This document shows, piece by piece, positions 26,080-59,906 of a stretch of 64,000 nt of DNA (the stretch's first letter is position 1; every line of letters begins with the position of its first letter). The notes under the pieces were generated by a model. The model did no database searches and had not been told where the DNA came from. It saw only the letters and a list, made by a program, of their open reading frames with translations. Where the stretch lies: UHGV virus genome UHGV-0179803, one strand, 5' to 3'. The DNA is from a virus. The translations under genes were made by a program, and so were the position numbers.

Positions 26080-26155
26080 TGGCGGCCCCTACTGGACTTG
26101 AACCAGCAACCAAGCGATTATGAGTCACCCGCTCTACCTGTTGAGCTAAAGGGCC
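26080..26155 (-). tRNA. tRNA with anticodon CAU (Met elongator/initiator, or Ile2 if lysidine-modified)
   Basis: Hand-folded cloverleaf: acceptor GGCCCUU/AGGGGCC, D-stem GCUC/GAGC, anticodon loop CUCAUAA, T-arm GGUUCAAGUCC, encoded CCA end. Confidence 0.7.
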
Positions 26156-26156
26156 G

Positions 26157-26232
26157 TGGTGCTGATGGAGGGACTCGAACCCACAACCTTTTGATTACAA
26201 ATCAATTGCACTACCGTTTGTGCTACATCAGC
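26157..26232 (-). tRNA. tRNA-Thr (anticodon UGU), tentative
   Basis: Acceptor GCUGAUG/CAUCAGC, discriminator A, encoded CCA, anticodon loop UUUGUAA, T-loop UUCGAGU. One mismatch each in the anticodon and T stems, so identity needs confirmation. Confidence 0.55.
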
Positions 26233-26248
26233 AAACTGCTTATGATAG

Positions 26249-26323
26249 TGGTATTCGGAGCGGGAGTCGAACCCGCATCTACAGCTTAGGAGGCCGCTAT
26301 TCTATCCGTTGAACTATCCGAAC
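26249..26323 (-). tRNA. tRNA-Arg (anticodon CCU, reads AGG)
   Basis: Acceptor GUUCGGA/UCCGAAU, anticodon loop CUCCUAA, perfect T-arm GCGGG-UUCGACU-CCCGC, encoded CCA. Confidence 0.65.
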
Positions 26324-36261: not shown

Positions 36262-36630
36262 ATGGCTGCATTAGGTAAGAAACGCCGTGGTAATTTCCTG
36301 GTGGTCTTGACAGACCATCCAGAGGAAGAGTATCATTGCAGATCAACACGGGTTATCCCAGTCCAGGATCGTGAAGGTGATGAAATCTGGGATGAATTAA
36401 TGTTGACTTGTTCTGACAGTGAATATTTCTTCATCTACGTTAAAGACAAAGCAGGTTTCTTTGAAAATGATGATCTGCTGCGTTATGATATTGCAGATAT
36501 GGTAAGAGCTTGCCACAAAGACAGTGCTGAACTCTTCGGTCTGCAACTTAAGGATAAAACTTTCTTCTATCAGGACGAATGCGTGGAGATTTACAGGGAA
36601 GTGGAAGATGAATTACTCCACGATAACTGA
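36262..36630 (+). CDS. Hypothetical protein (122 aa)
   Basis: RBS AGGAG. Confidence 0.45.
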   Translation: MAALGKKRRGNFLVVLTDHPEEEYHCRSTRVIPVQDREGDEIWDELMLTCSDSEYFFIYVKDKAGFFENDDLLRYDIADMVRACHKDSAELFGLQLKDKTFFYQDECVEIYREVEDELLHDN

Positions 36631-39931: not shown

Positions 39932-41320
39932 GTGGGAGAACATACTTATGAGATTGGCACGGATGCCGCTCTCGCCGCTGTGTTATGTGGTGAAAACGTC
40001 TATATCAGCGGACCTGGCGGGACCGGGAAGACTCATCTTTTACAAGATATACAGTCTTTACTTGGCGAATCCTGTATGGTTGTTGCCCCAACAGGGGTAG
40101 CCGCGCTTAACGCGGGAGGTGTTACCGCACACAGAGCTTTTGACCTGTCAGCAGGTGTGACTGTCCCAGAAGACTTCACAGAGATTCGTTCTAAAACAGC
40201 AAAACCTCTCAAAAGTAAAGCGCTACGGACTTTAGTCATTGATGAAGTGTCTATGGTCCGTGCGGATAAGTTTGTGGAGATGGATAAGAAACTCCAGCAC
40301 CTCCGTAAAACCAGTGAACCTTTCGGAGGTTTACAGGTGATCATGTTTGGGGATTTCTACCAGGCACAACCTGTTATCTCTACGCAAGAAAGGGAGGACT
40401 ACTACAAATATTGGGATACTGACCTTTGTTTCTATACCCAATCGTGGAAAGATCTTAATCTGAAATGTGTTGCCCTTGTGGAGCAATTCAGGCAAGAGTC
40501 AATCCGGTTTGCCACAATGCTGAACTGCGTTCGTGAAGGTAGGAGAACAGGCGATGTGGTTAAAGAATTAAACTCTCGTTGTTACCACGGGGGGCAGGCC
40601 TCTGATGCTATCATCCTTTGCTCAACCAACAAAAGAGTGGAGGAGATAAACAGAGAGTTCTATGACCGTATTGATGGTGAGGAGAGGATGTATAAAGGGA
40701 CGCTGAAAGGTAAATTCCCTCCCAATCAGCTACCTGTGGAAGATTTGATGTGCCTTAAAGTGGGAATGAAAGTCATGATTGTTGCCAACGACCTTAATCC
40801 TAATCACAAAGTTCCTTGTTATGTTAACGGTTCTCGTGGCACAATATTAAAATTCTATGATGATAAGGTTGACATTGAACTAGATAATGGTACACTTGTG
40901 ACTGTACCTAAAAAGCTATGGGAAAGCTACGAATACAAACCGTCCCTGAAAATGGATTGGAAGGCTCGTAAACAGAAAAGAGTGATTGAGAGAATAACCA
41001 CAGGGTCATTTGAACAGTTGCCTTTGAAGTCTGGATACGCGTACACAATTCACAAAAGCCAGGGTCTTACGTTAGATGCCTATAACTTGGATCTTGGTAA
41101 GAGAGGCGCATTCGCAGCGGGAATGACTTATGTTGCTCTTAGTCGTGCTAAGAAAATTCAGAGCATTACCCTCTTGCGTCCTGTCAGAGAAAGTGATATT
41201 ATTGTAGACCCAAGAGTGGTACAGTTTTACGCTGATACGTTCCCGGGGTTGGATGAAAAAGTAAGAAAAGATCTTGAAGTCAAAGTTAAAAAGGAGGCCG
41301 AGAATGAGTCTACTGGCTAA
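39932..41320 (+). CDS. SF1B DNA helicase (Dda/RecD/Pif1-like)
   Basis: GTG start after AAGGAGG. Walker A ISGPGGTGKTH, Walker B LVIDEVSMV, C-terminal ..YAYTIHKSQGLTLD.. and ..VALSRAKK.. motifs. Confidence 0.8.
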   Translation: MGEHTYEIGTDAALAAVLCGENVYISGPGGTGKTHLLQDIQSLLGESCMVVAPTGVAALNAGGVTAHRAFDLSAGVTVPEDFTEIRSKTAKPLKSKALRTLVIDEVSMVRADKFVEMDKKLQHLRKTSEPFGGLQVIMFGDFYQAQPVISTQEREDYYKYWDTDLCFYTQSWKDLNLKCVALVEQFRQESIRFATMLNCVREGRRTGDVVKELNSRCYHGGQASDAIILCSTNKRVEEINREFYDRIDGEERMYKGTLKGKFPPNQLPVEDLMCLKVGMKVMIVANDLNPNHKVPCYVNGSRGTILKFYDDKVDIELDNGTLVTVPKKLWESYEYKPSLKMDWKARKQKRVIERITTGSFEQLPLKSGYAYTIHKSQGLTLDAYNLDLGKRGAFAAGMTYVALSRAKKIQSITLLRPVRESDIIVDPRVVQFYADTFPGLDEKVRKDLEVKVKKEAENESTG

Positions 41321-41627
41321 TGTGGTTAATTATGTCGCCGATATTGATACATCTGAACCACAAGATGTAACAGTGCACGACTTTACACAACGTCATAAAA
41401 ATCATGATCTTTTGTTGGTGGCAGACAGTGAGGATTATGATGTTTACCATGCTTTTGTGTTCTCTGATACTGTTTTTGAAGTAGGTCAATTCCTGACTGT
41501 TAACTTCGGAGAAGATACAGGTGTGGAAGATATTGTAACTTTCATTATCGAAGGTCTGGATTGTGTTGACGAAGACGGTACTGCGTTTGAATTGATTCTT
41601 CGTGTTGTAGAAGAGCTTGACATATAA
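41304..41627 (+). CDS. Small acidic protein
   Basis: ATG after AAAGGAGG. Highly Asp/Glu-rich. Confidence 0.45.
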   Translation: MSLLANVVNYVADIDTSEPQDVTVHDFTQRHKNHDLLLVADSEDYDVYHAFVFSDTVFEVGQFLTVNFGEDTGVEDIVTFIIEGLDCVDEDGTAFELILRVVEELDI

Positions 41628-42459: not shown

Positions 42460-42929
42460 TTTACGAAAGTGACTATATCTGGAAGATTGGCCCTGCTGCA
42501 CAAGATCTGATTGAAGTGCCACGGGAAACGCTACAAAAAGCTGCTTTTAAGTTCCGTGATCTTGCAGTGATTGGTAACAGGATCCTGAAATATCTTAAAA
42601 ACAAACGTTATGTTGAAGAGAAGTTCTTCGGATTGATCAAAAAAGAAACTACAGTATGGGAACACTACTTGAAAGAGTCTCAGAGCTTCTATGCTGGGCT
42701 GGGCGTAGCTCAGATGGTGATGCATGACGGTTACATCAACCCAACTGAAATGCGTTGCCTACGCTACGCTATAAGCGATTACCCTGGGTTCCTGAAGTAT
42801 CATTTAACTGGCACAGCCTCTGAAAAGATTTATCTGACAGAGGAACATTTCGAACAACTGAATAAAATTTTAAACATAGACTTGACATTAGTCTCAACAG
42901 AGTATACAATTGGGATTCGTGTCGAGTAA
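42456..42929 (+). CDS. Hypothetical protein (157 aa)
   Basis: ORF in operon. Confidence 0.5.
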   Translation: MIYESDYIWKIGPAAQDLIEVPRETLQKAAFKFRDLAVIGNRILKYLKNKRYVEEKFFGLIKKETTVWEHYLKESQSFYAGLGVAQMVMHDGYINPTEMRCLRYAISDYPGFLKYHLTGTASEKIYLTEEHFEQLNKILNIDLTLVSTEYTIGIRVE

Positions 42930-42934
42930 TAACA

Positions 42935-42965
42935 GCCCTGCCCGAAAGGGCGGGGTTTTTGTGTT
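42935..42965 (+). terminator. Rho-independent terminator (CCCTGCCC-GAAA-GGGCGGGG + T-tract)
   Basis: GNRA-loop hairpin followed by TTTTTGTGTTT. Confidence 0.65.
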
Positions 42966-42981
42966 TGGAGGGCTAAATAGT

Positions 42982-43716
42982 ATGAAGCAAGGTGTAGTGT
43001 GGGCTTTATTCAATGGCTCCGATATTGCTGTCAAACCCTGGGCTGATGCAGGGTATTTGTGCTTCTGCTTCAATGCAGAAGGGGCAGATCACGGGAGCTA
43101 TGCAGAGGTAGTAGAAGAACATCCCAACATTAAGTACATAGATTACTGGATTGACCCGTGGTTCCCACAAGAAACCTTGGGGATGTATCCTGCACCAGAT
43201 TTCATCCTGTCGTTTCCACCATGTACCCACTTAGCGGTATCTGGAGCAGCACATTTCAAGAAAAAATTACAAAAAGATCCGTTGATTCAGGTCAATGCTG
43301 TAAAAGATGCACGTATTGCAGAAACATTGGGTAACATGTATAATTGTCCGTGGCATGTGGAGAACCCTGTTGGGGTTATGTCTAATATGTGGCGTAAACC
43401 AGACTACAAGTTCCATCCGTCTGAGTATGGTGGCTATCTGCCGGAAGATGACCAGAACCCGTGGTTCCCTGACCTGATTAAGCCCAGAGATGCTTATCCG
43501 AAGCTAACCTGTGGATGGTTTGGGAATGGTTTTGTTGTCCCTGAGAAACGACCTGTGCCGCAGATTTGTGATGTAAATGGGTATTCTTTCCAACATACCA
43601 AACTGGGAGGAAAATCTCCTCGTACCAAAATGATCAGAAGCCTGACACCTCGTGGTTGGGCATTAGCCGTGTTTGAAGCCAACGAACCCGTTGTAAGGAG
43701 CAAACTCAATGGTTGA
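42982..43716 (+). CDS. Possible DNA (cytosine-5) methyltransferase-like protein; assignment tentative
   Basis: Ordered motif-like segments: LFNGSD (cf. motif I FxGxG), SFPPCTHLAVSG (cf. motif IV PC), WHVENPVG (cf. motif VI ENV). Short for a C5-MTase (244 aa). Confidence 0.3.
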   Translation: MKQGVVWALFNGSDIAVKPWADAGYLCFCFNAEGADHGSYAEVVEEHPNIKYIDYWIDPWFPQETLGMYPAPDFILSFPPCTHLAVSGAAHFKKKLQKDPLIQVNAVKDARIAETLGNMYNCPWHVENPVGVMSNMWRKPDYKFHPSEYGGYLPEDDQNPWFPDLIKPRDAYPKLTCGWFGNGFVVPEKRPVPQICDVNGYSFQHTKLGGKSPRTKMIRSLTPRGWALAVFEANEPVVRSKLNG

Positions 43717-44380
43717 CTGGAGCAAATATTTCACCTACAGTGACGGTAAACTGTTCTGGGCGTATACCGCAAAAGCCGGAAGAGGCAGGGTTATACATCA
43801 CGCAGGCGAGGAGGCCACAGGTACAGACACAGATGGCTATAGGGTGATAAGTGTGTCAGGTGTTGGACGTGTTAGTAGGCATAGAATAATTTGGGAGATG
43901 CATTACGGGGAGATACCTGAAGGCCTTGTTGTGCGGCACAAGAACGACATAGCAGGCGATGATAGGATAGAGAACTTAGTCCTAGGAACACAGGGAGATA
44001 ATGTACGAGACATGATCTACAGTGACAAATTGAACATTAACAATACCTCAGGGTGTCGAGGTGTATGCTACCATAGGGGTGTAAAAAGATGGATTGCATC
44101 TGCTGGAGACATATATTTAGGATGTTTTAAGACAAAAGAGGATGCAATTACATGCAGAAAGTTATGGGAGGAGGGAAAATTCGTCCCGCAAGAATTAGAT
44201 GTTAGAAATACCAGCGGTGTAACAGGGGTGTTCTATGTGCCAAGCTCTGGAAGGTGGAGAGTTAGAGTACAAAGTGGCAAAAAGAGAAAGAGCTATGGTA
44301 GTTACAACACTTTAGAAGAAGCAAGAGCTGTAAGGGACAGAGTGATGAAAGAGATTGAGGAGTCTAAAGATGGGGAATAA
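43709..44380 (+). CDS. Freestanding HNH homing endonuclease with AP2 DNA-binding repeats
   Basis: HNH_3-like core ..RHRIIWEMHYGEIPEGLVVRHKNDIAGDDRIENLVLGTQGDN.. plus AP2-like repeats ..SGCRGVCYHRGVKRWIASAGDIYLGCFKTKEDA.. and ..SGVTGVFYVPSSGRWRVRV..YGSYNTLEEA.. Confidence 0.7.
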   Translation: MVDWSKYFTYSDGKLFWAYTAKAGRGRVIHHAGEEATGTDTDGYRVISVSGVGRVSRHRIIWEMHYGEIPEGLVVRHKNDIAGDDRIENLVLGTQGDNVRDMIYSDKLNINNTSGCRGVCYHRGVKRWIASAGDIYLGCFKTKEDAITCRKLWEEGKFVPQELDVRNTSGVTGVFYVPSSGRWRVRVQSGKKRKSYGSYNTLEEARAVRDRVMKEIEESKDGE

Positions 44381-47300
44381 GTTTATACCCTCTGCGTATA
44401 GTCGTTATGGGGAACCGAACCCAGTTGCAACAAGATACAAAAGCGGAGGCAGTATGGCACGAGACTATCGTGATGAAAAAGAGGTTGAAACTGTAGAGAC
44501 TGTTTTAGAAAATACTAAAATTGTCCCTGTTCCACAACAAAATATCGGACTGACGGCTGCACAATATTTCGGTGTGCGATCAGCATTGTCCCAAGAAGAT
44601 GGTGTGACAGTCGTTGCAACATATTTCCCATATTACAACCGCTACGGCAATCTATCTGGCTTTAAAAAGCGTGATTGGTCTAAGCCAAAAGAGCAGAAAG
44701 GGCACTGGTCTGTAGTAGGCATTGTTAAGGCCAACAGCCAGTTCTTCGGTCAGAAAATGGTTGGTGAAGGCTCAGACCATCGTAAAATCATTGTCTGCGA
44801 AGGTGAAGGCGATGTTATTGCTGCGTGGCAGACTGAATGGATGATGGTCAGGAAAATAGCTACAGACCCGTCATCAAATAAGAAAGCTAAAGCGTGGGCA
44901 CAAAGCGTTCTTGACGGTATTAAAGCCGTGCAGGATGGTGGTTCTGCTAAAGGTTTTCCCACAATTAACGTGGTAGGGCTTAATTGTGGTTGTGCGAATG
45001 CCGTAGACGCTTTTGCCAACAACGAGAAGTTTATTCGTGGCTTTGATGAGATTGTCCTGGCCTTCGATAATGACGCTGCAAATGATGTTGAGAAGCTAAA
45101 ACATGTCACCAAAGGTGTTGAAGCCACTCACAATGTTGCAGCTTTCCTGATGGCTGACAACGTTTTCCATGTGCAGTATCCGAGCGAGGTAAATGATCCA
45201 GAGGGTTACAAAGATATCCGTGATTTGTTCCAGGCTAAAAAGTATGATCAAATTCACGATATGTTCAAAAACCCGATCAAATACGTGCCAGACGCTGTAG
45301 CAGGCCTGAATGATTTCTCAATTGAAGATTTACGTAAAAAATCCACCAATGGTGTTGACATTGGGGCAGAGTTCCCTAAACTCCAGAAAATGTTGAAAGG
45401 TTTGCATAAAGGCACACTGGTCATGTTGACTGGCCCTTCCGGCGGTGGTAAGACTACGGTAGCTAAGAAGATTGAGCACCAGATAGCTAAATACCTGATG
45501 GATCCTACGGTGGCTAAAGCTGATGACTACGACCCCGAAGACAGGTTGTGTATGATTCACCTGGAAGAGGACCCAGAAGAAGCCATCAACTCGCTGTATG
45601 CTAACCAGCTGGGGTATGATATCAAGAATTTCATGGAGGACCCAAGCAAGTATCTGACCGAGCAGGAACACTTTGAAATCCACAAAGCCTGGGTTGATGC
45701 TGATAAAATCAGAGTATTCCGGCACTTCGGTTCAATACCTGTAAACGACCTGATCACCAAGCTGAAACAGATGGTGTGCTTGTATCATTGTCGTTACATC
45801 GTACTGGATCATCTGTCAATGGTTATTTCTGGTTTGAATGTAAAAGATGAGCGTAAAGAGCTGGACCTTGCAATGACGCAGCTTGCAGCATTCTGTAAGC
45901 AATTCAATGTGTTCATTTTGGTGATTGCACACTTACGTCGTACAGAGATTATCCCACCGAAGGATAAAGAAGGTAGGGCTTTACCGTTCTGGTATCCTGT
46001 CCGTAAAGAAAACCTTCGTGGTTGTGTTTCTGCGGACACAGAGTTTTTAACCCCGCAGGGGTGGAAACGCATAGATAACTATGCAGAAGGGGATTTGGTT
46101 GCGCAGCACGATGAAAATGGCGTAATGACTTTCGTAACCCCGAAAGCCTACATCAATCTTCCTTGCGAAGAAATGTGGCATGTTTCCAACACTCACGTTG
46201 TAGACATGTTGTTGAGCGATGAACATCGTGTTGTATATGTGAATGACAGAACGCCAGATGTTTTCCGTACGAAAACCATGTTGGAAGTTGTCTATGACCA
46301 CAACAACAAGCCTTCAGGTATGCGTGGGAAAATACCTGCTACGTTCCTCACAGGGTGCAATGGGACGCTGGGGTTGACTGATGACCAATTACGCCTACAG
46401 GTTGCTGTAAATGCTGATGGGACAGTTCTTACTGAGTCAACAGGAAGAGTGGCTGTGAGAATCAAAAAAGATCGGAAAAAACAACGTCTCGAGATGCTGC
46501 TGGAGAAAACAAACACCACTTATAGGCGTCTTGATTTGCACGGGGTGCACGAAGGACGCACAGAGTACCAATTTAAAGCACCGTGTGGGTATAAAGGTGT
46601 GACTGGGGAATGGTTTAATCTCAAACAACACGAGTTGGAGATTATCTGTGATGAGGTTATGTATTGGGACGGAGATTCTGTGAACAAAAACAGGGTGTCC
46701 ACCATTAACAAACTTGAAGCGGACTTCTTACAGTTTGCCTACAGCGCCTGTGGACATAGAACATCTTTATCCATGAAGGAGAACAACAGTGGCTTTGGCG
46801 GTAGTTACAACTGTAAACCTTTGTACGAGGTAAATGTTTGCAATACTAAGTACATGCATATACGCAAAGGTAGTAATAACAAACCCTCTATTGAACGTGT
46901 ACCTTCCCCAGATGGACGTAAGTATTGCTTTACGTTACCGTCGGGTATGTGGGTGGCGCGCCGCAATGGGCATATTTTTATCACAGGAAATTCGGGGAGT
47001 ATGGAACAACTCAGTTGGGTTGTCATAGGGGTAGAAGCAGAAGAGATGCCTGACAGGTCCCGTGGGCGTGTCCGTTTAGTTAGCCTAAAAAACAGGCCAG
47101 CTAAAACCTTGGGTATCGCTGATGTGCTGATTATGAACCCTGAGACTGGTAAATTCTCCGATGCCAGTGACTGGGTGTGGGATAAAGAGACAGGTTTCTT
47201 CCTGAACAAAGATGGGGATATTGTCTGGAGGCCACAAGATATGTTCGACAATGAAGAACATGTTGTTGTGGAAACTCCTGAAGGTAAGGTTACCGCCGAT

Positions 47301-47411
47301 GTGAAACCTCAACCAAAATCTGTTGACGCAGAAGGGGAAGAAGATGATGGAGTGGATGATCAGAGTGTAATCCAACAGGAGTTCCCTGAGGATGAAGATT
47401 GTCCGTTCTGA
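44370..47411 (+). CDS. Bifunctional DNA primase (TOPRIM) / DnaB-family replicative helicase, intein-containing precursor
   Basis: ATG 44370 eight nt after GAGGAG. TOPRIM motifs IIVCEGEGD and LAFDNDAAND. Helicase Walker A LTGPSGGGKTT and Walker B YIVLDHLSM. Motif H4 is interrupted: ..ENLRG[intein]SGSMEQLSWVV.., cf. DnaB ..LRESGSIEQDADL.. Confidence 0.8.
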   Translation: MGNKFIPSAYSRYGEPNPVATRYKSGGSMARDYRDEKEVETVETVLENTKIVPVPQQNIGLTAAQYFGVRSALSQEDGVTVVATYFPYYNRYGNLSGFKKRDWSKPKEQKGHWSVVGIVKANSQFFGQKMVGEGSDHRKIIVCEGEGDVIAAWQTEWMMVRKIATDPSSNKKAKAWAQSVLDGIKAVQDGGSAKGFPTINVVGLNCGCANAVDAFANNEKFIRGFDEIVLAFDNDAANDVEKLKHVTKGVEATHNVAAFLMADNVFHVQYPSEVNDPEGYKDIRDLFQAKKYDQIHDMFKNPIKYVPDAVAGLNDFSIEDLRKKSTNGVDIGAEFPKLQKMLKGLHKGTLVMLTGPSGGGKTTVAKKIEHQIAKYLMDPTVAKADDYDPEDRLCMIHLEEDPEEAINSLYANQLGYDIKNFMEDPSKYLTEQEHFEIHKAWVDADKIRVFRHFGSIPVNDLITKLKQMVCLYHCRYIVLDHLSMVISGLNVKDERKELDLAMTQLAAFCKQFNVFILVIAHLRRTEIIPPKDKEGRALPFWYPVRKENLRGCVSADTEFLTPQGWKRIDNYAEGDLVAQHDENGVMTFVTPKAYINLPCEEMWHVSNTHVVDMLLSDEHRVVYVNDRTPDVFRTKTMLEVVYDHNNKPSGMRGKIPATFLTGCNGTLGLTDDQLRLQVAVNADGTVLTESTGRVAVRIKKDRKKQRLEMLLEKTNTTYRRLDLHGVHEGRTEYQFKAPCGYKGVTGEWFNLKQHELEIICDEVMYWDGDSVNKNRVSTINKLEADFLQFAYSACGHRTSLSMKENNSGFGGSYNCKPLYEVNVCNTKYMHIRKGSNNKPSIERVPSPDGRKYCFTLPSGMWVARRNGHIFITGNSGSMEQLSWVVIGVEAEEMPDRSRGRVRLVSLKNRPAKTLGIADVLIMNPETGKFSDASDWVWDKETGFFLNKDGDIVWRPQDMFDNEEHVVVETPEGKVTADVKPQPKSVDAEGEEDDGVDDQSVIQQEFPEDEDCPF
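46023..46991 (+). mobile_element. Intein (323 aa) inserted in helicase motif H4 of the primase-helicase
   Basis: In frame. Starts with Cys (CVSADTEF..), ends ..VARRNGHIFITGN followed by Ser. Removing it restores LRG-SGSMEQ, which matches the DnaB consensus. Size suggests an embedded endonuclease domain. Confidence 0.6.
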
Positions 47412-47475: not shown

Positions 47476-50262
47476 ATGGCGCTTTTTTGTTATGACTTTG
47501 AGGCCTCAGGCTTGCTCGATGAGCCTGAACTGTACTACCATTGTGGACTGTTTAAACAGCACCACAAAAACAATTTCATGCTATTCCTGCCGCTAAACGA
47601 CAGGACCCATTACACAGAGGAAGATGTAGAAACAGCAAAACAATTTGCTCTCAATAAGCAGACAATTTACAAAAACTGTCAGGTGCGGGTTGCCGACTTC
47701 GGGTATCTGGAAGAGTGGTTGACAGGACATTCTGATTGGTCACCAACAGCTCTTGCCTGCCACAACTGCTTTGATTATGACCAGATTTTGATGGAAAAAC
47801 TGTCAGGCATTCATTTCGACCTGTTCGAAGATAAAGATTGCATGGGAACCATCAACGGTCACAGGGTTAACCTGTTCGATACTCTGCCGATGAGTCGTAT
47901 ACTGTGGCCTGATCGCCCGTTACCGAAGGGTTGCCCAGAATCAGTATTCAACCCGGTAACGAAGAAAAGTCAAGCTGTAGGTCCACACGGGTTGATGGCC
48001 TGGGGCTATGCACTTGGCAACCAGAAAGTTAAGATTGATGACTGGCGCAATCTTCCACTCTGGAAATACGTAGACCGTGTGTGGGAAGACGTTATCATCC
48101 AGGAATTGCTCTGGGACGAACTGATCGCCGAGTCCAAAGGGACATTCTACGGTAAATCTGACATGCAAAACTTTATGTATGATCCAGACAAAGAGAAACC
48201 TGGTGGATTCAAACAGATCACTTGGAAGTATGCTCTGCGTCGTGGGATGCTTCAGCACTTCCTGATGGGCTTACAGGCAAGACAAGGTGTTTATTTTGAT
48301 ATTGATGGGGCGATAGCTTTACGTCAGAAGTGTGACGACATGATGAAAGAGATCGCTGATCGTGTGGAACCGCAGCTGCCACTGAAAGAAATTTCAGAGG
48401 CCCAGAAGCCTAAGTTCCCACAGAAACCGTTTAATACGGATGGTAGTATCTCTTCTCACGGCTACAGCTGGTTGAAGAACAAACTGGGGTATCCAGTTAA
48501 TGAAGCAGCTTTCGACTTCAAACCTGCACCTAAACGGGCTTTCAACAAAGATGGTAGTGTTAGTGCCACAGGTGCTAAATGGTGTGTAGAAAGAGGTTGC
48601 ACCGATCCTGAAAAACAGGCAGACTTCCTGAGGGCAGCACGGTCAGAGGAAGCACCTAAACCTCTGCCGGATGACCTGATGCAACAGGCAATTAAGGATT
48701 TGCAGGATAAGAAAATGCCTGATTGCATGGTGCCTATGAGAATGAATAACCAGATGGATATCAAGCGTTATCTAATCTCTGTAGGCTGGCAACCAACAAT
48801 GTGGAGAACGAAAGATTTAACCCGTGATTACCACAAAAAACAGTTGCCGGATGCTGAAGTTGATGCTAAAGTAAGGGAGTATATGGATGAACTGGAAACA
48901 TCTGAGTATCGTGCCCTGATCATCCGTGAACTGAACAAGGATGCACGATTCAAAATTTCAGAAGCGAAGTTTCTGAGTCGTAAGAACTCCCCGAGGGTTG
49001 AGCAGGAGGTGTTCGCTAAGTTCCGGCGTAAAGCCAGAGGACTACCAACATCCCCGCAGCTGAAAGATAGCTTCGGGCATTTGTGTCCTAACCTGGCAAG
49101 ACTGCAAGGAGAGATGGCAAAAGATATTGTGTTCTGGCTGTCATTGCGTAACCGTAGGTCAGTACTTGACCCAATCAAGGAAGATAAAGTTGATACCGGA
49201 TTGTTGAATCATCCGAGATTGCAGATCGATCACCGCTTACCCGCAGAAAGCTCTGGTTTGACTGCTACCGGACGACAGAAGCATAAAATATGTGCCAACC
49301 AGCCTAAACCTTCACCAAAAGTTGTATTGGGTAAGGAGATGCGTAGCCTCTGGAAACCTGCTCCTGGTAAGTATCAGTTGGGGGTGGATGGTTCCAACCT
49401 TGAACAGCTGATAGGTGCATGGGGTGCTTACGATTTCGACAACGGGGCGTATTACAGGATTATAAGCGAAGGGGACGCACATGCTTTGAACGCCAAAGCC
49501 TACTCTAAAGTTGTGGGCAGGGAAGTTTCCCGTGGTGATGGTAAACCAATCACCTATGGTGTGATGTATGGCGCTCAAAAGGATAAAGTAGCGGATATGC
49601 TCGACGTTGTGCCGGAGGTTGGTCAGCAGGTAATTGATGCATTCTGGGATACCAACTTCGGCCTGAAAGGTCGTAAAGAGGCACTTGAGAAATTCTGGGA
49701 GGCAACAGGTAAGAAATTTATCTATGCTTTCGATGGTCATGCCATCTGGACACGCTCTAAACACTCCTTGCTGAATGCATATCAGCAGAATGGTGGCGCT
49801 TCATTGTGTGACTTGGTAGGCTTACTGGTTCATCGCAACCTAGTGACCTTGAAAATAGATAATAAAACTTGGTATGACCTAGGTGTCAGAAGAATAATTT
49901 ATTACCATGACGAATTTCAGTATGAAATTCCAGATAATGGCTTATTTAAAACAGTTTATGAGTTTGATACTCTGGAAGAACTGGAAAAATTCAAAGCAGA
50001 GGAGGAAGCAAAAGGTCGTATCTTTACTGGCAACAAATACAAAAAAGCCCGTAAAGATGAAAATGGTGAAGAAGTAGTTGACAGCAACGGTAAAACCGTG
50101 TATGATCCAATCATAAACGAAAACGGCAAATGCCAGTTGATTCATTGCAAGGTTGGTGAAATGGTTGTTAAATGCTTCCACCAGGCATCTCGCATCATGA
50201 AAGTACCTTTCCAGATCACAGGTGAAGGTCTTGTGGGATACTCGTGGGGCGAATGCCACTGA
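47476..50262 (+). CDS. Family A DNA polymerase with N-terminal 3'-5' exonuclease domain
   Basis: Exo I motif CYDFEASGL. Pol A motif A LGVDGSNLEQ, motif B ..RGDGKPITYGVMYGAQ.., motif C ..IYYHDEFQYE.. Confidence 0.85.
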   Translation: MALFCYDFEASGLLDEPELYYHCGLFKQHHKNNFMLFLPLNDRTHYTEEDVETAKQFALNKQTIYKNCQVRVADFGYLEEWLTGHSDWSPTALACHNCFDYDQILMEKLSGIHFDLFEDKDCMGTINGHRVNLFDTLPMSRILWPDRPLPKGCPESVFNPVTKKSQAVGPHGLMAWGYALGNQKVKIDDWRNLPLWKYVDRVWEDVIIQELLWDELIAESKGTFYGKSDMQNFMYDPDKEKPGGFKQITWKYALRRGMLQHFLMGLQARQGVYFDIDGAIALRQKCDDMMKEIADRVEPQLPLKEISEAQKPKFPQKPFNTDGSISSHGYSWLKNKLGYPVNEAAFDFKPAPKRAFNKDGSVSATGAKWCVERGCTDPEKQADFLRAARSEEAPKPLPDDLMQQAIKDLQDKKMPDCMVPMRMNNQMDIKRYLISVGWQPTMWRTKDLTRDYHKKQLPDAEVDAKVREYMDELETSEYRALIIRELNKDARFKISEAKFLSRKNSPRVEQEVFAKFRRKARGLPTSPQLKDSFGHLCPNLARLQGEMAKDIVFWLSLRNRRSVLDPIKEDKVDTGLLNHPRLQIDHRLPAESSGLTATGRQKHKICANQPKPSPKVVLGKEMRSLWKPAPGKYQLGVDGSNLEQLIGAWGAYDFDNGAYYRIISEGDAHALNAKAYSKVVGREVSRGDGKPITYGVMYGAQKDKVADMLDVVPEVGQQVIDAFWDTNFGLKGRKEALEKFWEATGKKFIYAFDGHAIWTRSKHSLLNAYQQNGGASLCDLVGLLVHRNLVTLKIDNKTWYDLGVRRIIYYHDEFQYEIPDNGLFKTVYEFDTLEELEKFKAEEEAKGRIFTGNKYKKARKDENGEEVVDSNGKTVYDPIINENGKCQLIHCKVGEMVVKCFHQASRIMKVPFQITGEGLVGYSWGECH

Positions 50263-50328
50263 TAAATCAATAACTTACGTAACATACTGGAGGGGAATAC
50301 TTCCCCTCCCCAATCAGGAGAGTTAGCC

Positions 50329-50580
50329 ATGACAGAACGTGAAGTAATCCCAGTAGTATGTGTTTACGCAGCAGGTGAAGATGACGGTTATCCACACCTG
50401 GAAGGTTTATTTGTTGAAGGCCATGAGTACGTACTCGTCCGGTCAGAGGAAGAAGACGAAGAAGGGATCTACCTGGTTAAAGACGAAAGAGTACCGTTTG
50501 AATGGTCAGCAATAGAACAGGAAGATGGTGTGTGGACTGTCGAAGGTCTGGAGCTGATTGCAGAATTCGAAGAACTTTAA
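50329..50580 (+). CDS. Small highly acidic protein (83 aa)
   Basis: RBS AGGAG. About 30% Asp+Glu. Confidence 0.5.
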   Translation: MTEREVIPVVCVYAAGEDDGYPHLEGLFVEGHEYVLVRSEEEDEEGIYLVKDERVPFEWSAIEQEDGVWTVEGLELIAEFEEL

Positions 50581-50591
50581 GGGGCACCACA

Positions 50592-50813
50592 ATGGAAGAC
50601 TGTATCTTAGTAAAAGCTAAATTCGTCAATCCTAGAGCATTTTGGTTTACAGAAGGTGGTACTTACGTACTCCAGAAGTCTCCTCAAATAGCTGGCAATT
50701 TAATAGTCATTGACGACGATGGTGAATCATGGTTCACAACTCCACAGTTTGACGGTACGTGGGAAGTAGTGGGCACTTACACTCACGCTGTATTCGAGGA
50801 GATAGAGGAATGA
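50592..50813 (+). CDS. Hypothetical small protein (73 aa)
   Basis: ATG 50592 after AAGGGG. Confidence 0.45.
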   Translation: MEDCILVKAKFVNPRAFWFTEGGTYVLQKSPQIAGNLIVIDDDGESWFTTPQFDGTWEVVGTYTHAVFEEIEE

Positions 50814-51187
50814 AAGTTAAAGGCACAGAACACATAGAACGCGCTGTGGAGGTTGAACTGGATGCCCGTGAAGTGGGCGAACTCATCGACAACACAGCAG
50901 AAGAAGTGCTCCTGCATTCGATTCAGTGCCGTGCAATGCAACGTTTCTATGAACGGGTTGCAGGTTTTGAAGGCTCTTTTTGTGTGCGGCAGCGGCAGGG
51001 AGATAATGGTATACTTGTGTACCAACTGTGGAAAATTGATGCTGACTGGGACTACCACAATGATGTTGGCATCGATGAAAAAATAAAAGACTTGACAACA
51101 GAGGAGGTTGTGGAGTATATTTACCTCCGTGGTTGGGTAGAGAACGCAATATTCCAGTTAAGAATTCCAGTTGGAGAAGCCAAATGA
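50810..51187 (+). CDS. Hypothetical protein (125 aa)
   Basis: ATG overlaps the upstream stop (ATGA); RBS GAGGAGATAGAGG. Confidence 0.45.
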   Translation: MKVKGTEHIERAVEVELDAREVGELIDNTAEEVLLHSIQCRAMQRFYERVAGFEGSFCVRQRQGDNGILVYQLWKIDADWDYHNDVGIDEKIKDLTTEEVVEYIYLRGWVENAIFQLRIPVGEAK

Positions 51188-51441
51188 AAATTATTATCAA
51201 AGAAGACAAACTGATTTCTGATGAAACTTTCCGTGATTGCACTGCTGGTGCAGTCTATGAAGCGAAAATGTGTGAAAATCCGCTAATTGCACTCTGCGAA
51301 CAACTCGGTATCCACCTTGACGAAGAAGATATTCGTTACGCCGAAGAAGGTCTGCAATGTCTCCTCTTCCACGACGATAAAGGAGAGGCTGTGTATTGCA
51401 CTTTCAAAGACGTGGTTATTGTAAAACCTGAACATTATTGA
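51184..51441 (+). CDS. Hypothetical small protein (85 aa)
   Basis: ATG overlaps the upstream stop; RBS GGAG. Confidence 0.45.
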   Translation: MKIIIKEDKLISDETFRDCTAGAVYEAKMCENPLIALCEQLGIHLDEEDIRYAEEGLQCLLFHDDKGEAVYCTFKDVVIVKPEHY

Positions 51442-51450
51442 TATTAACTA

Positions 51451-51479
51451 TTGACAAGCGTGGCGGGGTTATGTATAAT
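51451..51479 (+). promoter_or_regulatory. Consensus sigma70 promoter (TTGACA, 17 bp spacer, TATAAT)
   Basis: Exact -35 TTGACA (51451-51456) and -10 TATAAT (51474-51479); RBS AAGAGGAG and ATG at 51508 downstream. Confidence 0.7.
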
Positions 51480-51507
51480 AGCCCCGTTAACAAAGAGGAG
51501 AGCCAGA

Positions 51508-51765
51508 ATGAAAGCACAACGTGTCAAAGCTAAAGTAAAACGTTTCTGCCTTGAAGAAGACTGCGCATTTTGTGATTGTGAACTAGGTGTCATCTATGAT
51601 GCTATCATCAATCTGGATGACGAAGATGATCCTCAACTGGGCAAAGAATGTGTCCTGATCGACGGGCATGGTGATGATGTTTACTGCACAACAGCAGAGC
51701 TGGAAATCGTAGAAGAAGGTGAAGTCTACGAAACTACTTACACAGAACTTTTCCGTAGCTTTTAA
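51508..51765 (+). CDS. Small acidic Cys-containing protein (85 aa)
   Basis: RBS AAGAGGAG. Motif CLEEDCAFCDC and an acidic C-terminal half. Confidence 0.5.
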   Translation: MKAQRVKAKVKRFCLEEDCAFCDCELGVIYDAIINLDDEDDPQLGKECVLIDGHGDDVYCTTAELEIVEEGEVYETTYTELFRSF

Positions 51766-51777
51766 AGGTGCCACAAG

Positions 51778-52176
51778 ATGAAAAAACTTTGGGATTTAGA
51801 CCTCTTCGATCTTACTGGGTTTGACGATTCATTCGGTGTTATCACAGTCCGTGATGGTGTGGCTGTGCTTAACTTGAATGGTCAGCAATTCCTGCTTGAA
51901 GATATGGCTTTGGTACGTGCAGATGACAATCCAAAAGCTGATCTGTTTGACCGTTTACAGCCGTTCAATTTCCGTAAAGGTACAAAAGCAGACCTTGATT
52001 GTAAGGTCAACGTGATGGTCACACAACAAGGTCCGTACCTGGTAATCTGCGCAGTAAAGAAAATGTGCAGCCTGAATGATCACGACCCACGGGCTAAAAA
52101 CGATGTTATCATCCTCAAAGTGGGTGATGCGATGGAAGATTTGATGAATGCAACTGGAGGTACTGGTGAGGACTGA
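51778..52176 (+). CDS. Hypothetical protein (132 aa)
   Basis: RBS AAAGGTG. Confidence 0.45.
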   Translation: MKKLWDLDLFDLTGFDDSFGVITVRDGVAVLNLNGQQFLLEDMALVRADDNPKADLFDRLQPFNFRKGTKADLDCKVNVMVTQQGPYLVICAVKKMCSLNDHDPRAKNDVIILKVGDAMEDLMNATGGTGED

Positions 52177-52468
52177 TTACGAAAATATGGATCCTGAAGA
52201 CTTCCTGAAGATCTTACGCCGCGTAATGAACTCACAAAACGAGATCACTTTGGAAGATGAGTTACTTGCCTCTTACCTCGAAGAGGCTGGCGATGAGCTT
52301 CCAATCTATGCGGGTCCGGGGGGCATGTATGCTTTGTGGCGCAAGATAGACATTCTTGAAACAGGGAAAGATATGATTATCTGGCACCTGATCAACAATG
52401 TTGGGGTCCCTGCATTTGACAAAGCGGTTGCAGAATTTTATCAACTTGACGAAGGCTACCCAGTATGA
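52166..52468 (+). CDS. Hypothetical protein (start uncertain: GTG 52166 or ATG 52187)
   Basis: ORF in operon; GTG is 5 nt after GGAGG. Confidence 0.35.
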   Translation: MRTDYENMDPEDFLKILRRVMNSQNEITLEDELLASYLEEAGDELPIYAGPGGMYALWRKIDILETGKDMIIWHLINNVGVPAFDKAVAEFYQLDEGYPV

Positions 52469-52725
52469 AACGCTTAACAGACCATGTATTCAAAGAAGGT
52501 GACAAAATCGTATTCGATGAGTTAGGTCCTGGCGCTGAAGCATGTGAAAACCTGACAGTAGGTAAAGAGTATGAAGTTGTAACTCCTACTTACAAACACA
52601 CACAGCTGTTCGGTATTGATGCTGAAATCTTACTACCAGGTATGTTTGAAATCCGTGATGATGCAGGTGATCTGATCGTAGGCGTACTTGGTGACGGCCT
52701 GTGGGGTGTTGCACGCCCAGTGTGA
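52465..52725 (+). CDS. Hypothetical small protein (86 aa)
   Basis: Overlapping stop/start. Confidence 0.45.
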   Translation: MKRLTDHVFKEGDKIVFDELGPGAEACENLTVGKEYEVVTPTYKHTQLFGIDAEILLPGMFEIRDDAGDLIVGVLGDGLWGVARPV

Positions 52726-52745
52726 TACTGTATAAACAATCAGTA

Positions 52746-52774
52746 TTGTTATTCCTGTAGGGAAGTGCTATAAT
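52746..52774 (+). promoter_or_regulatory. Sigma70-like promoter (TTGTTA, 17 bp spacer, TATAAT), with -10 inside an inverted repeat
   Basis: The TATAAT sits in the loop of GGGAAGTGC-TATAATGG-TACTTCCC. Confidence 0.45.
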
Positions 52775-52821
52775 GGTACTTCCCTTTAATACGTTGTTCA
52801 ACTAATCGGAGATTTCCTATA

Positions 52822-53217
52822 ATGGAACAAATGAACGATCAAGAAACGGTGGCAATGAACGTGCCAAACGAAGAACAACCTCAAGAAGCTGTATTCTTAG
52901 GGTTATCACGAGATCAGGTAGCTTTGCTGGCTGTTCTCTCTTCCTTCTTCTCCAACCTTACCGAAGTCATGAAGCAACAAGATGCTGATCGACTCTTCCA
53001 GGCACTGGTTGAAGAACCAAATTACAGACGCTTAGATTATGCTTTAGGTTGGGTAGCTCGCAACCGGGATGATATCCTTGCTTTGGTGGGAACCTGCAAC
53101 TTTGCACTGGGCCTACTGGCTAAAGTACAGGATACCTTAATCAAAGTCGGCTTCCAGGCTGGTGATCAGCAACAAGAAGCAGAGCAACCACAACAAACTG
53201 AAGGAGACAAACAATGA
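52822..53217 (+). CDS. Hypothetical protein (131 aa), Gln/Glu-rich termini
   Basis: ORF downstream of the promoter. Confidence 0.45.
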   Translation: MEQMNDQETVAMNVPNEEQPQEAVFLGLSRDQVALLAVLSSFFSNLTEVMKQQDADRLFQALVEEPNYRRLDYALGWVARNRDDILALVGTCNFALGLLAKVQDTLIKVGFQAGDQQQEAEQPQQTEGDKQ

Positions 53218-54467
53218 GTGTTGTACAAGAATTCAAAAACCCAATGAATCCCCGTGAAACTATTCTCATGGCTCACGGTATCATCAAACGGGTAAGTATT
53301 AAACCTATCAAAGGGGCTGATCCTGAAACAGGCATCAAAACTACTGTGTGGCAAGGTAAGAAAATAGAATCCTCACACACTATTGCTCTTCTAATCGCTG
53401 AAGTGGATGAGAACGACAAACTGCTCCAGGGCGGTGAAGAGATGTGGGTTAGCATGGGCGATAAACTCCTGAAACCTGGTCATCAGGATTCTGTTAGCGT
53501 TAAGATTAATGACAAATGGGAAACTGTAGTACCTGGCTGGATTGTTAACATCCCGCTTAAATCCAACGAGTACAACGGTAAAACCTATTACAAAGGATCT
53601 CTGGCTAAAATTGTTGTGTTAGGGGCTGGTGAAGTACCTGCAAGTGCTCCTAAAGCGCAGCAGAAAGGCCAACAACAGCCTAAACATGGTCAGGGTAAGC
53701 AACCACAAGGCAACCAACAAAAACCTGCTCAGAAAGGGGCTAATGACGTTTTACGCATTTATGGTACTATCACCGCCATTGATGGTAAATCCGTAACCGT
53801 TGATGATCAGAAGATTGGTGTTGGTGTGATGGTTGTCAACAACCCAAATCAGTTGAAAGAGCTGGTTGTAGGTGGTCGTGTTGCAGCTGTATGCGATACA
53901 GCGGGTAATGTCCTGAGTGGTTTTAAAGCATATCCACCACTGGAAAACAAAACACCTCGTAAGTCAACCTACGACCCTATTGGTGTGAGCACTGGTCATG
54001 CTCTTAATGCAATGCAAATTCTTCTGGATCGTGGATTGAATCCGGGGAGTACGACAGATTTAGGTATCGCAATGCAACTCCACACCTTGACAATTGACCT
54101 TAAAATGGAGTATGCTAAGGCAACAGGGAATGAAGAGGATGCTGTTGGGGCAACTGTAGGTAATGCTGTACTTAATGCATGTCGCCGTGTTAACATCGAC
54201 AACCTACAGAATCTTGATTGTCTGTTCAAAGATATCAAAGCTGAAGCCAATAACGTTCTGGTAAATCTGGCTGAACCTTTGTATCAGTGGATCAAAACTG
54301 GCAGCACAACCGCTGTTTCTAAACAGGGAACCAAACAGGAACCTGTGCCGGAACAGAAGCCAGAACCGCAACCGGAGCCTCAGCAGAATACTGTAGATGC
54401 TCCACCAGTAGAAGAGGAGGAACCTGATCCTACAGAGTGGGCCTTTGATGAAGACATACCCTTCTGA
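53214..54467 (+). CDS. ssb: Single-stranded DNA-binding protein (SSB-like) with long Gln/Pro-rich linker and acidic tip
   Basis: C-terminus ..EWAFDEDIPF matches the conserved SSB tail (..DDDIPF). Low-complexity linker QQKGQQQPKHGQGKQPQGNQQKP. The N-terminal region is compatible with an OB fold but was not verified. Confidence 0.6.
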   Translation: MSVVQEFKNPMNPRETILMAHGIIKRVSIKPIKGADPETGIKTTVWQGKKIESSHTIALLIAEVDENDKLLQGGEEMWVSMGDKLLKPGHQDSVSVKINDKWETVVPGWIVNIPLKSNEYNGKTYYKGSLAKIVVLGAGEVPASAPKAQQKGQQQPKHGQGKQPQGNQQKPAQKGANDVLRIYGTITAIDGKSVTVDDQKIGVGVMVVNNPNQLKELVVGGRVAAVCDTAGNVLSGFKAYPPLENKTPRKSTYDPIGVSTGHALNAMQILLDRGLNPGSTTDLGIAMQLHTLTIDLKMEYAKATGNEEDAVGATVGNAVLNACRRVNIDNLQNLDCLFKDIKAEANNVLVNLAEPLYQWIKTGSTTAVSKQGTKQEPVPEQKPEPQPEPQQNTVDAPPVEEEEPDPTEWAFDEDIPF

Positions 54468-54531
54468 TAAGTCATTGATTTATAGAGGATTTTAGCCATG
54501 TTCAACGAAGAAAACTGGGATGTGTAACGAT

Positions 54532-54558
54532 AAGGCCACCTTCGGGTGGCCTTTTTTA
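54532..54558 (+). terminator. Rho-independent terminator (AAGGCCACC-TTCG-GGTGGCCTT + T6)
   Basis: Perfect stem with UUCG loop and TTTTTT, right after ssb. Confidence 0.75.
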
Positions 54559-54587
54559 TTGACAAGAGAAAAATTTTAGGCTATAAT
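54559..54587 (+). promoter_or_regulatory. Consensus sigma70 promoter (TTGACA, 17 bp spacer, TATAAT)
   Basis: Exact consensus hexamers, directly abutting the upstream terminator. Confidence 0.7.
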
Positions 54588-54889
54588 GCGACCACTAAGA
54601 GAAAGATAAGGACTACCACTAGGATTAAGCAAGACATTATCAAAGCACGCAAACAGTTGACAGCGGAAGAAGCTCTTGATCGGGGTTATCGTTTTGCACA
54701 GACTTATAAAGCTATTCGTGAAGCACTGACTGATATGGTCAATGGGCAGCGGGAAGTGATGAAAAACAATATCAGCATTAAAATTTCTGAGTACACAATT
54801 TGCAGGTTAGAAAGTTTAGGCATCACTGTTCGTGATTTTGCTTTCAAAGTCTTGTTCCGTTTGGAACGTTTGTGAGAGGGAGGTATTCC

Positions 54890-58132: not shown

Positions 58133-58360
58133 ATGTTGTATCGAGTTAAAGTTGCAGCGGATGTTCAGGGTCCGTGGGCTGAGTGGGCAGGCTGGTATTT
58201 ACTTGCTCCAATGGAGGGTTGTACTGATATTAAGTACAATGCTTGCCTCTACAACGAAGAGGAACTTGAAGAGGAACTCTTCATTGCAGATGGTATAGAG
58301 CACGGCCTGTTTGAAGTAGAGCCAGCTTTCGACTCTATACCGGGTTATTATTCTTATTGA
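58133..58360 (+). CDS. Hypothetical small acidic protein (75 aa)
   Basis: ATG after AAGGAG. Confidence 0.45.
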   Translation: MLYRVKVAADVQGPWAEWAGWYLLAPMEGCTDIKYNACLYNEEELEEELFIADGIEHGLFEVEPAFDSIPGYYSY

Positions 58361-58781: not shown

Positions 58782-58976
58782 ATGGGTGATTTACAGAAAA
58801 TCTTATTTACTGTCCTGCTCCTTGTCGGTATGTTTGCGGCAGTAGGCTTTGTGGCTATTAGTGCTGCACACTACGCAGACTTTCCTGCATGGGTACGTGC
58901 TTCGTATTCAGCTATTATGTTGGGGGGTTTGTGCGGTTTCTTAAAATATATAGGACGTGAGGTGCCTGAAAAATGA
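58782..58976 (+). CDS. Small membrane protein (64 aa)
   Basis: RBS AGGAGG. Two hydrophobic segments (ILFTVLLLVGMFAAVGFVAI and AIMLGGLCGFL). Confidence 0.45.
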   Translation: MGDLQKILFTVLLLVGMFAAVGFVAISAAHYADFPAWVRASYSAIMLGGLCGFLKYIGREVPEK

Positions 58977-59401
58977 TCTACCCTGTACCTAAACTAATTC
59001 CGGTATATGACAACGATTCTCGCTTTCAGGTAATGATTGCAGGTATCCTTGTCACTGGTAAAATCGATAGCTATGTGTTCAATGGTGAACGTTTTAAAGA
59101 ATACTCTATTGAATGGGATGGCTATGACTATAACGTCTACTTCGATGAAAACGGGGAGATGTACTTCGAAGAAGTAGAAATGTTGTTAGGTGTTGCAGGT
59201 ATCATCAAACCTAAGGATGTAGAATTTGCTGAAGGGGAATGCGATGACTGCGGTGACTATTGCGTCTGCGATATCCACTTACCTTCAGGGGAAACTATCT
59301 ATTTTGAAACGCATTTCGGTGAAACGAACTTCCCTAATGATTGGGAAGAGTTTTTCGAGATTGTGGAAAAAGAAAGGGAAGTGTTAAGAAGCCGTCGATA
59401 A
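58973..59401 (+). CDS. Hypothetical acidic protein (142 aa)
   Basis: Overlapping stop/start. Confidence 0.45.
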   Translation: MIYPVPKLIPVYDNDSRFQVMIAGILVTGKIDSYVFNGERFKEYSIEWDGYDYNVYFDENGEMYFEEVEMLLGVAGIIKPKDVEFAEGECDDCGDYCVCDIHLPSGETIYFETHFGETNFPNDWEEFFEIVEKEREVLRSRR

Positions 59402-59490: not shown

Positions 59491-59685
59491 ATGGCAACAG
59501 TACATCTTATGGCTATCAAACGTCACAATACTTTGTATGGCCCGATTTATGAAACTGTTCTCGGCAATCTGTATATCATCAATGGGACTAGCTTCAGCAA
59601 AATTGACATTCACCACATCGAAGCGTTTCGTGTAGCAGAGCCAGAGTTAGGTTGCTGGTTCCTTCCTGTAGAATGCAATTTATGA
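59491..59685 (+). CDS. Hypothetical small protein (64 aa)
   Basis: ATG after AAGGAGAG. Confidence 0.45.
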   Translation: MATVHLMAIKRHNTLYGPIYETVLGNLYIINGTSFSKIDIHHIEAFRVAEPELGCWFLPVECNL

Positions 59686-59693
59686 GGTGCAGC

Positions 59694-59906
59694 ATGGCTA
59701 CTGCAACATGTGTATCTACGCAGCATGACAAATGGGAACTCTTCGAAGAGTATGAGGTCATCGGTGAGCCAAATGAATTTACTATACTGGTAAAAGCCTG
59801 TGATGGTGAAACATGGTGGTTCCATAAGAGCTGTGATTACCCTGGTTACCATTTTGCACGTACTTCAACTGGCAAATACATTTACTTACTGGTGAACGAG
59901 GACTGA
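59694..59906 (+). CDS. Hypothetical small protein (70 aa)
   Basis: ATG after GAGGTG. Confidence 0.4.
   Translation: MATATCVSTQHDKWELFEEYEVIGEPNEFTILVKACDGETWWFHKSCDYPGYHFARTSTGKYIYLLVNED

Follow-up and report, generated by a model that had tools for sequence, protein, structure and literature searches.

A block of small acidic genes next to the polymerase gene in an rV5-like phage: two predicted beta-barrel families and their candidate role in protein binding

The question raised by the virus genome UHGV-0179803 concerns the role of nine consecutive small genes (g1-g9, positions 50329-53217), all encoding acidic proteins with isoelectric points (pI) of 4.05-4.73, in the 64,000-nucleotide stretch that was analysed (the window). 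A first-pass annotation of this DNA had presented them as candidate DNA mimics or anti-restriction factors. The present analysis points to small protein-binding accessory modulators, built largely from two duplicated tiny beta-barrel scaffolds, a reading to which we give a probability of roughly 55%. The anatomy of the block is well supported, and the mechanism is what we infer from it.

Two families of tandem paralogues with predicted barrel folds

All genes of the block lie on the + strand, and two pairs of neighbours among them resemble each other. The products of g1 (50329..50580; 83 amino acids (aa), hyper-acidic) and g2 (50592..50813; 73 aa, acidic, net charge -9) are 36% identical over 56 aa in blastp (E 6e-4), and their alignment with three small proteins encoded at the equivalent site of the Vequintavirus (rV5-like) coliphage slur12 shows F, G, Y, D, W, G, A and F as invariant residues. 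The locus carries two g1/g2-type copies here and three in slur12; g2, for which a slur12 orthologue is present, matches phrog_12623. The products of g4 (51184..51441; 85 aa, acidic, net -10; phrog_12544, E 1e-25) and g5 (51508..51765; 85 aa, acidic, net -14) are 32% identical over 81 aa in blastp, and their family retains K7, K11, D18, F21, D23, C24, Y30, D52, G55, V58, C60 and T61. On these alignments, g1/g2 and g4/g5 are two pairs of diverged tandem paralogues. Fusion of both pairs into one family was rejected, as the hhalign probability was 0.3%.

The product of g8 (52465..52725; 86 aa, acidic) aligned in register with the g1/g2 superfamily over 55 columns (hhalign probability 46%, E 2e-4) and is possibly a third, more diverged member, a tentative assignment; its inclusion in the g4/g5 family was rejected at a profile comparison probability of 6%. 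Elsewhere in the window, the open reading frame (ORF) 59652-59906, with the motif F.E..YEV...ILV...DGE.WWF, gave a weak match to the g1/g2 profile (E 0.026 within the window) and may encode a further diverged paralogue.

The g1 and g5 products were modelled with AlphaFold2 from family alignments. The g5 model, with a predicted local distance difference test score (pLDDT) of 90.5, is mainly beta and SH3-like, being a five-to-six-stranded small barrel that can be superimposed on SH3 domains, and it was likened to SH3-like small barrels such as the Sho1 SH3 domain (PDB 2VKN). A fold search of BFVD with g5 returned only uncharacterised phage proteins. The g1 model (pLDDT 83.6) has six strands and an 18-residue beta1-beta2 loop, and resembles Gp54 of Escherichia phage Bas11 (JohannLBurckhardt; PDB 9AXB) in its six-stranded barrel, its prominent beta1-beta2 loop and its size class of ~65-85 aa, at a sequence identity of 16%. 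As neither templates nor Gp54 sequences in the alignment were used for the model, this match is independent of the Gp54 family.

For a profile comparison, Gp54 was grouped with six homologues from T1-like and Kagunavirus genomes. The g1/g2 family aligned with this Gp54 family by hhalign over its full length, with 62 columns in register (E 1e-4, probability 57%), and G31, W59 and W69 of g1 were paired with G24, W43 and W53 of Gp54. Against the single Gp54 sequence, the values were E 0.0016 and a probability of 16%, and no member of the Gp54 family was retrieved when the g1/g2 family was used in an exhaustive HMMER search. From the model and the profile alignment, g1 and g2 are structural counterparts of Gp54, and they are probably also its remote homologues, a link that, as far as the literature searched shows, has not been reported before. 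The two systems differ in phage lineage, a ~140-kb rV5-like myovirus here and a 50-kb Drexlerviridae siphovirus in the case of Gp54, and also in that the present locus holds tandem paralogues with a hyper-acidic g1 (net -21), in contrast to the net charge of -2 to -4 of Gp54.

Gp54 is a 66-aa protein without known function that is non-essential to Bas11 in the laboratory and that directly binds and activates the defence protein CapRelSJ46, at its antitoxin domain (Zhang et al., Nature 2024; PMC11578894). On binding, Gp54 partly unfolds and its beta1-beta2 loop refolds to a strand (PMC11578894). Its homologues from SECphi27, Bas5, Bas8 and Bas10 do not activate CapRelSJ46, even though that of Bas10 has only three differences from Gp54 (PMC11578894). 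The fold, known first from Gp54, was described as very rare, and the authors speculated that Gp54 could be an inhibitor of another defence system (PMC11578894). In the later papers that were searched, no function assigned to Gp54 was found.

Database searches added members to both families and no names. Searches of large databases returned 113 clusters for the g1/g2 family and 57 for the g4/g5 family, with zero functional names; many of these clusters lie on contigs of ~120-145 kb, a length typical of rV5-like phages. Scans of g1-g9, the downstream gene g10, a separate acidic ORF at 41304..41627 (the 41304 ORF) and their neighbours against Pfam, NCBIfam and PHROG gave only PHROGs of 'unknown function', with a weak DUF7238 match of g7 at 22.8 bits, against a cut-off of 27. 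Sequence searches of the PDB, for which the profiles of the two families as well as g6, g10 and the 41304 ORF served as queries, returned nothing meaningful, and matches to fatty-acid-binding proteins (E ~0.02) were put down to a chance resemblance of beta-hairpins.

The exhaustive g1/g2 profile search also matched large proteins with 3-8 repeats of a 'G..Y.V ... DD.G' motif; these are short matches in multiple stretches of proteins of 200-3900 aa, in which DUF6501/DUF7244 assignments are weak or concern one repeat. Proteins P0171, P0172 and P0179 (270-571 aa) carry tandem mini-domains of ~50-60 aa with the motif seen in g1, g2, g4, g5 and g8. The repeat proteins suggest a much broader class of small beta-barrel repeats, or the tie to them may reflect a common beta-hairpin motif only.

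Conservation of the block and distribution of its charge

The upstream boundary of the cluster is the gene of a family-A DNA polymerase (47476..50262, +; 928 aa), which shares 74% identity with its counterparts in the Vequintavirus coliphages slur12 and SophiaRose, 56% with that of Salmonella phage SSE121 and 42% with that of Vibrio phage ICP1. At the DNA level, deposited phages are matched over one stretch of ~850 bp only, with 73.6% identity. These values make the phage, an rV5-like (Vequintavirinae-related) myophage, a new relative of the rV5 group.

Genes were called from ORFs, start codons, ribosome-binding sites and ATGA overlaps. Downstream of g2, g3 (50810..51187; 125 aa, acidic; phrog_6273, E 4e-28) starts within an ATGA overlap with the g2 stop codon. 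After g4 and g5 come g6 (51778..52176; 132 aa, acidic; phrog_8284, E 7e-22) and g7 (52166..52468; ~100 aa, acidic; phrog_1451), for which a GTG behind GGAGG is the likely start; an ATG at 52148 is the alternative, and the orthologue in the metagenomic contig L003 has been called as 100 aa. Following g8, the strongly conserved g9 (52822..53217; 131 aa, acidic; phrog_7310, E 2e-33) overlaps with its stop the start of g10 (53214..54467, +; 417 aa; phrog_4477, unknown function), the downstream boundary of the cluster. The block is closed by an intrinsic terminator at 54532..54553 (+), with a 9-bp stem containing 6 GC pairs followed by TTTTTATT.

The gene order 3' of the polymerase is the same in slur12 and in metagenomic contigs of up to ~140 kb (L003, L015 and others). 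Compared with slur12, the small proteins are 34-49% identical (g3, 44%; g6, 39%), the polymerase 74%, and g9 and g10 63-66% (g9, 66%); g3 is 86% identical to its L003 orthologue. Pairwise ratios of nonsynonymous to synonymous substitution rates (dN/dS) ranged from 0.03 to 0.53 across all genes of the block, the lowest being those of g7 (0.03) and g9 (0.05), with g5, g7 and g9 together at 0.03-0.07, and the highest those of g1 (0.36-0.53) and g4 (0.23-0.48); g3 lay at 0.09-0.20. The nine genes g1-g9 are real, conserved and syntenic, and are under purifying selection. Detectable homologues of g5 are confined to rV5-like records (116 phage records). For g1, tblastn found no counterpart among 50,697 deposited phage genomes, a result to which low-complexity masking possibly contributed, and its family comprises ~14 metagenomic sequences, all at the same position of the locus.

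The composition of the proteins agreed with what had been noted for this DNA, namely small ORFs rich in Asp and Glu (D+E) next to replication genes. The g1 product has 30.1% D+E and 4.8% Lys plus Arg (net -21, pI 4.05), that of g5 25.9% D+E (net -14, pI 4.12) and that of the 41304 ORF 23.4% D+E (net -22, pI 4.05), and the cluster lies directly downstream of the polymerase gene. The remaining genes, g2-g4 and g6-g9, have 16-22% D+E and pI values of 4.16-4.73; for g6-g8 (51778-52725) the overall content is 17-20%, with some stretches locally richer. The window-wide mean of D+E was 13.5% (sd 4.6%; 82 crude ORF calls), so that g1 and g5 lie ~3.6 and ~2.7 sd above it, respectively. The curated run of nine acidic genes had a permutation p of ~0.0015, and the acidic run of 7 returned by a crude gene caller one of 0.013. 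In the T1-like phage Bas11, analysed likewise, the D+E content of every small protein was below 23%.

Acidity is not unique to the block, as other very acidic proteins are scattered across the window. Among these are a tail-fibre-assembly-like protein at 7096-7551 (24% D/E, net -28) and ORFs with no known function at 36262-36630, 58133-58360 and 58973-59401 (net -12 to -20).

Across the g1/g2 superfamily, the net charge ranges from -21 to +4, with a median of -7, and 2 of the 25 acidic positions of g1 are kept (D52 and E53, in a beta-turn motif). The g1 orthologues have net charges of -9 to -12, one near-identical copy excepted, and the extra charge of g1 sits mostly in a loop, EEEDEE, that is inserted after strand 2 and before strand 3, in other loops and at the C-terminus. 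Judged from these alignments, the hyper-acidity of g1 is a recent, lineage-specific gain. As it is recent and lies in loops and termini, this charge is more likely to tune partner binding or solubility than to copy the phosphate backbone of DNA.

Candidate roles of the acidic proteins

A protein-binding role is proposed because direct protein binding is the only known biochemical activity of the Gp54 fold. Under this proposal, much of the block arose as two tiny beta-barrel scaffolds were duplicated in tandem and diverged, and it would be expressed from host-type promoters within the replication module, early in infection. The barrels would then bind proteins stoichiometrically, by way of the barrel face and the variable loops, and the bound host or phage proteins, replication-associated ones included, would be modulated, with charge tuning partner specificity. 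That g1 and g4 evolve fast and that the copy number varies is in keeping with genes of host interaction, and a host-interaction or defence-interaction role is plausible by analogy, because one of the families shares its fold with a phage protein that interacts with a defence system. The block may also be functionally mixed.

Several points weigh against this proposal. No binding partner or phenotype is on record for the cluster proteins or their orthologues, and literature searches on Vequintavirinae transcriptomes and on defence triggers or inhibitors in this group returned nothing on these genes. The link to Gp54 comes from a predicted structure and a weak profile match, and scores of hidden Markov models against the Gp54 sequence reached only 7-9 bits, which is insignificant. 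As the role of Gp54 itself is not known, the analogy supplies a mode of action, protein binding, and no role. No informative matches were obtained for g3, g6, g7, g9 or the 41304 ORF in the searches described above. Furthermore, the g4/g5 family keeps 8 of 22 acidic positions, with a median net charge of -11, which fits nucleic-acid mimicry too, and the strong constraint on g5, g7 and g9 and the fixed position of the block fit accessory roles at the replisome equally well.

This last explanation, in which the proteins would be accessory factors of replication or recombination that bind the polymerase, the helicases or g10 and tune replication, with the product of the 41304 ORF binding the RecD-like helicase, is unlikely. 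In its favour, the block occupies the interval from the polymerase to g10 in all relatives examined, g5, g7 and g9 have the low dN/dS values given above, g9 and g10 overlap and share one conserved promoter, and the 41304 ORF overlaps the stop codon of the helicase gene, as does its slur12 orthologue. However, homologues of g5 were found only in the 116 rV5-like records, the family searches led mainly to contigs of up to ~145 kb, and SSE121-like and ICP1-like phages, whose polymerases are 42-56% identical, were missing from the matches. The small proteins are also far less similar to those of slur12 (34-49%) than is the polymerase (74%), the copy number of the g1/g2 family varies, and no known replication domain appeared in the PHROG, Pfam and NCBIfam scans.

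That at least one of g1, g5 and the 41304 ORF displays DNA-like carboxylates and sequesters a DNA-binding enzyme of the host, for instance a type I restriction enzyme, in the manner of Ocr or ArdA is improbable. These three proteins do show the high Asp/Glu content and low pI of DNA mimics in general (D+E of 23-30% and pI of ~4.05-4.1, within the known range) and they are composition outliers in this genome; with Ocr (T7 gp0.3) and ArdA they share, besides composition, small size and host-type promoters. Some DNA mimics, Ugi, p56 and AcrIIA4 among them, are as small as 55-90 aa. Composition is nevertheless the sole evidence for DNA mimicry here, a reading that is least improbable for the g4/g5 family with its retained acidic positions. 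Neither the Ocr family profile nor those of ArdA, ArdB/KlcA and other anti-restriction families in Pfam and NCBIfam matched g1-g9 or the 41304 ORF at E values up to 0.1, in line with the absence of any similarity that could be recognised by eye, and the PHROG scans likewise gave no anti-restriction match. The g1 model is all-beta and that of g5 mainly beta, unlike the all-helical fold of Ocr, whose dimer mimics bent B-DNA, and neither sequence similarity to ArdA nor its elongated three-domain fold of ~166 aa was found. The structure prediction suggested in the first-pass annotation was carried out for g1 and g5 and yielded compact beta-rich barrels, and the 60 best PDB fold matches of either model include no known DNA mimic. 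The proposed kinship with Ocr or ArdA did not stand up to any membership test that could be run. The scarce conservation of acidic positions in g1 and the lower charge of its orthologues and of Gp54 also speak against mimicry. In addition, an orthologue of g5 is present in the BASEL phage HeinrichReichert and others, and the Vequintavirinae and relatives of that collection are 'exceptionally susceptible' to restriction-modification, apparently lacking 'any effective protection' (PMC8594841). This argument covers the BASEL Vequintavirinae with g2-g9 orthologues and leaves out g1, which is absent there; the proteins may also mimic DNA towards a different target.

A narrower version, that g1 is a recently neo-functionalised Gp54-like barrel whose acidic loops make it a nucleic-acid-mimicking decoy against a host defence protein that binds DNA or RNA, is quite speculative and more doubtful still. 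If true, the Gp54 fold would be a new structural class of anti-defence mimic, which would explain the evolution of sensors such as CapRel towards this fold, and the tandem barrel paralogues of rV5-like phages would form an evolving anti-defence array.

Finally, the idea that the acidic frames are chance ORFs, non-coding by-products of base composition, draws on their short length and the lack of an annotated function in any library, and is ruled out by conservation and dN/dS, since orthologues of all the genes keep one order across several genomes and the ratios are well under 1, quite apart from the ribosome-binding sites, the ATGA overlaps and the confident models of g1 and g5 (pLDDT 84 and 90).

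With respect to the favoured role in protein binding, Gp54 has so far been known only as a trigger of CapRelSJ46. The presence of its fold as a tandem, fast-diverging family in the very common rV5-like coliphages suggests a widespread class that extends beyond a few T1-like phages, and the additional, very differently charged members provide material for tests of function and of defence sensing. For annotation, the locus warns against calling proteins DNA mimics on their Asp/Glu content alone, as the charge is here a variable decoration on conserved barrels. If no phenotype follows, the cluster would be an ordinary block of small phage accessory genes.

Promoters, the 41304 ORF and neighbouring elements

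Three promoter-like sites on the + strand were found within the block. A perfect sigma-70 consensus, TTGACA-17-TATAAT (51451..51479; 12/12), lies directly upstream of g5, a sigma-70-like promoter inside g3 (51092..51121; 11/12) is placed to drive g4, and a promoter with a TG-extended -10 element, TTGTTA-17-TATAAT (52746..52774), precedes g9/g10. The g5 promoter is also 12/12 at the orthologous position in both L003 and slur12, that inside g3 is 12/12 in L003 and 11/12 in slur12, and the g9 promoter has an equivalent site in both. Two relatives thus carry all three at orthologous positions, an argument for their being functional. Directly upstream of g1 and of the 41304 ORF, no consensus promoter was found. 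The earlier description of the ORFs as lying directly behind strong promoters is accordingly borne out for g5, g9 and the site in g3, but not for g1 or the 41304 ORF. As for the suggestion of early host-takeover proteins, conserved acidic accessory genes with host-type promoters are present, and early expression of the block is something that we infer from those promoters.

The starts annotated for some g5 orthologues fall inside the conserved perfect promoter, as in slur12 (coding sequence 11289-11609, promoter 11277-11305) and in L015 (6131-6430). The resulting N-terminal extensions are probably mis-annotations, the true start being the downstream ATG. An inverted repeat, CGGGG...CCCCG (51459-51486), flanks the -10 hexamer of the g5 promoter and may serve as an operator or form a hairpin at the 5' end of the RNA. 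A stable 9-bp GC-rich hairpin, GGAGGGGAA-TAC-TTCCCCTCC (50289..50309, +), was detected in the gap that follows the polymerase stop and precedes the g1 start; the region 50263-50335 folds with -18.5 kcal/mol (z = -2.67), no T-run follows the hairpin, and its role may lie in RNA processing or stability or in weak attenuation. In an Rfam scan of 49800-54700, the only match was a sub-threshold Phe-leader at the terminator. Immediately 3' of this terminator, a second perfect TTGACA-17-TATAAT occurs at 54559-54587. As it falls inside the called GTG ORF 54546-54875, the basic protein encoded there (pI ~10) probably starts further downstream.

The 41304 ORF (41304..41627, +; 107 aa) has a slur12 orthologue at the same site after recD2, with 40% identity and a net charge of -11, compared with -22 here. 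It matches phrog_11869 (unknown function) and has no Pfam or PDB match; a 'DNA ligase' label on a PHROG match (E 5e-7) was rejected as an unreliable family name on a 107-aa profile. As the ORF begins before the RecD-like helicase gene ends, its position, and only that, suggests a helicase-linked role.

The g10 product ends in ...EWAFDEDIPF, and D-x-IPF is retained in four relatives (among them slur12, FDDSIPF; HMD-6, CDDIPF; L003, DESIPF). The C-terminal tip of the bacterial single-strand-binding protein (SSB), DDDIPF, recruits SSB-interacting proteins. From this motif, g10 may serve as the SSB of the phage or may hijack the SSB interactome; searches of the PDB and Pfam gave no match for it.

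Upstream of the polymerase, the DnaB-like primase/helicase (44355-47411) has 1018 aa, compared with 692 aa in slur12. The difference lies in an insertion of ~320 aa (residues ~557-879, from ...LRG|CVSADTEF to ...FITGN|SGS) with PhoH/RNR-type PHROG matches, which looks like an intein. The L015 helicase is also long (1015 aa), and L003 has a short helicase but a polymerase of 1259 aa. The gene at 43709-44380, flanked by a DNA methyltransferase-like gene (42910-43716) and that of the helicase, encodes an HNH endonuclease of the homing-endonuclease type that carries an AP2 DNA-binding domain at its C-terminus. Finally, three tRNA genes, for Met (CAT), Thr (TGT) and Arg (CCT), are clustered on the - strand at 26080-26323.

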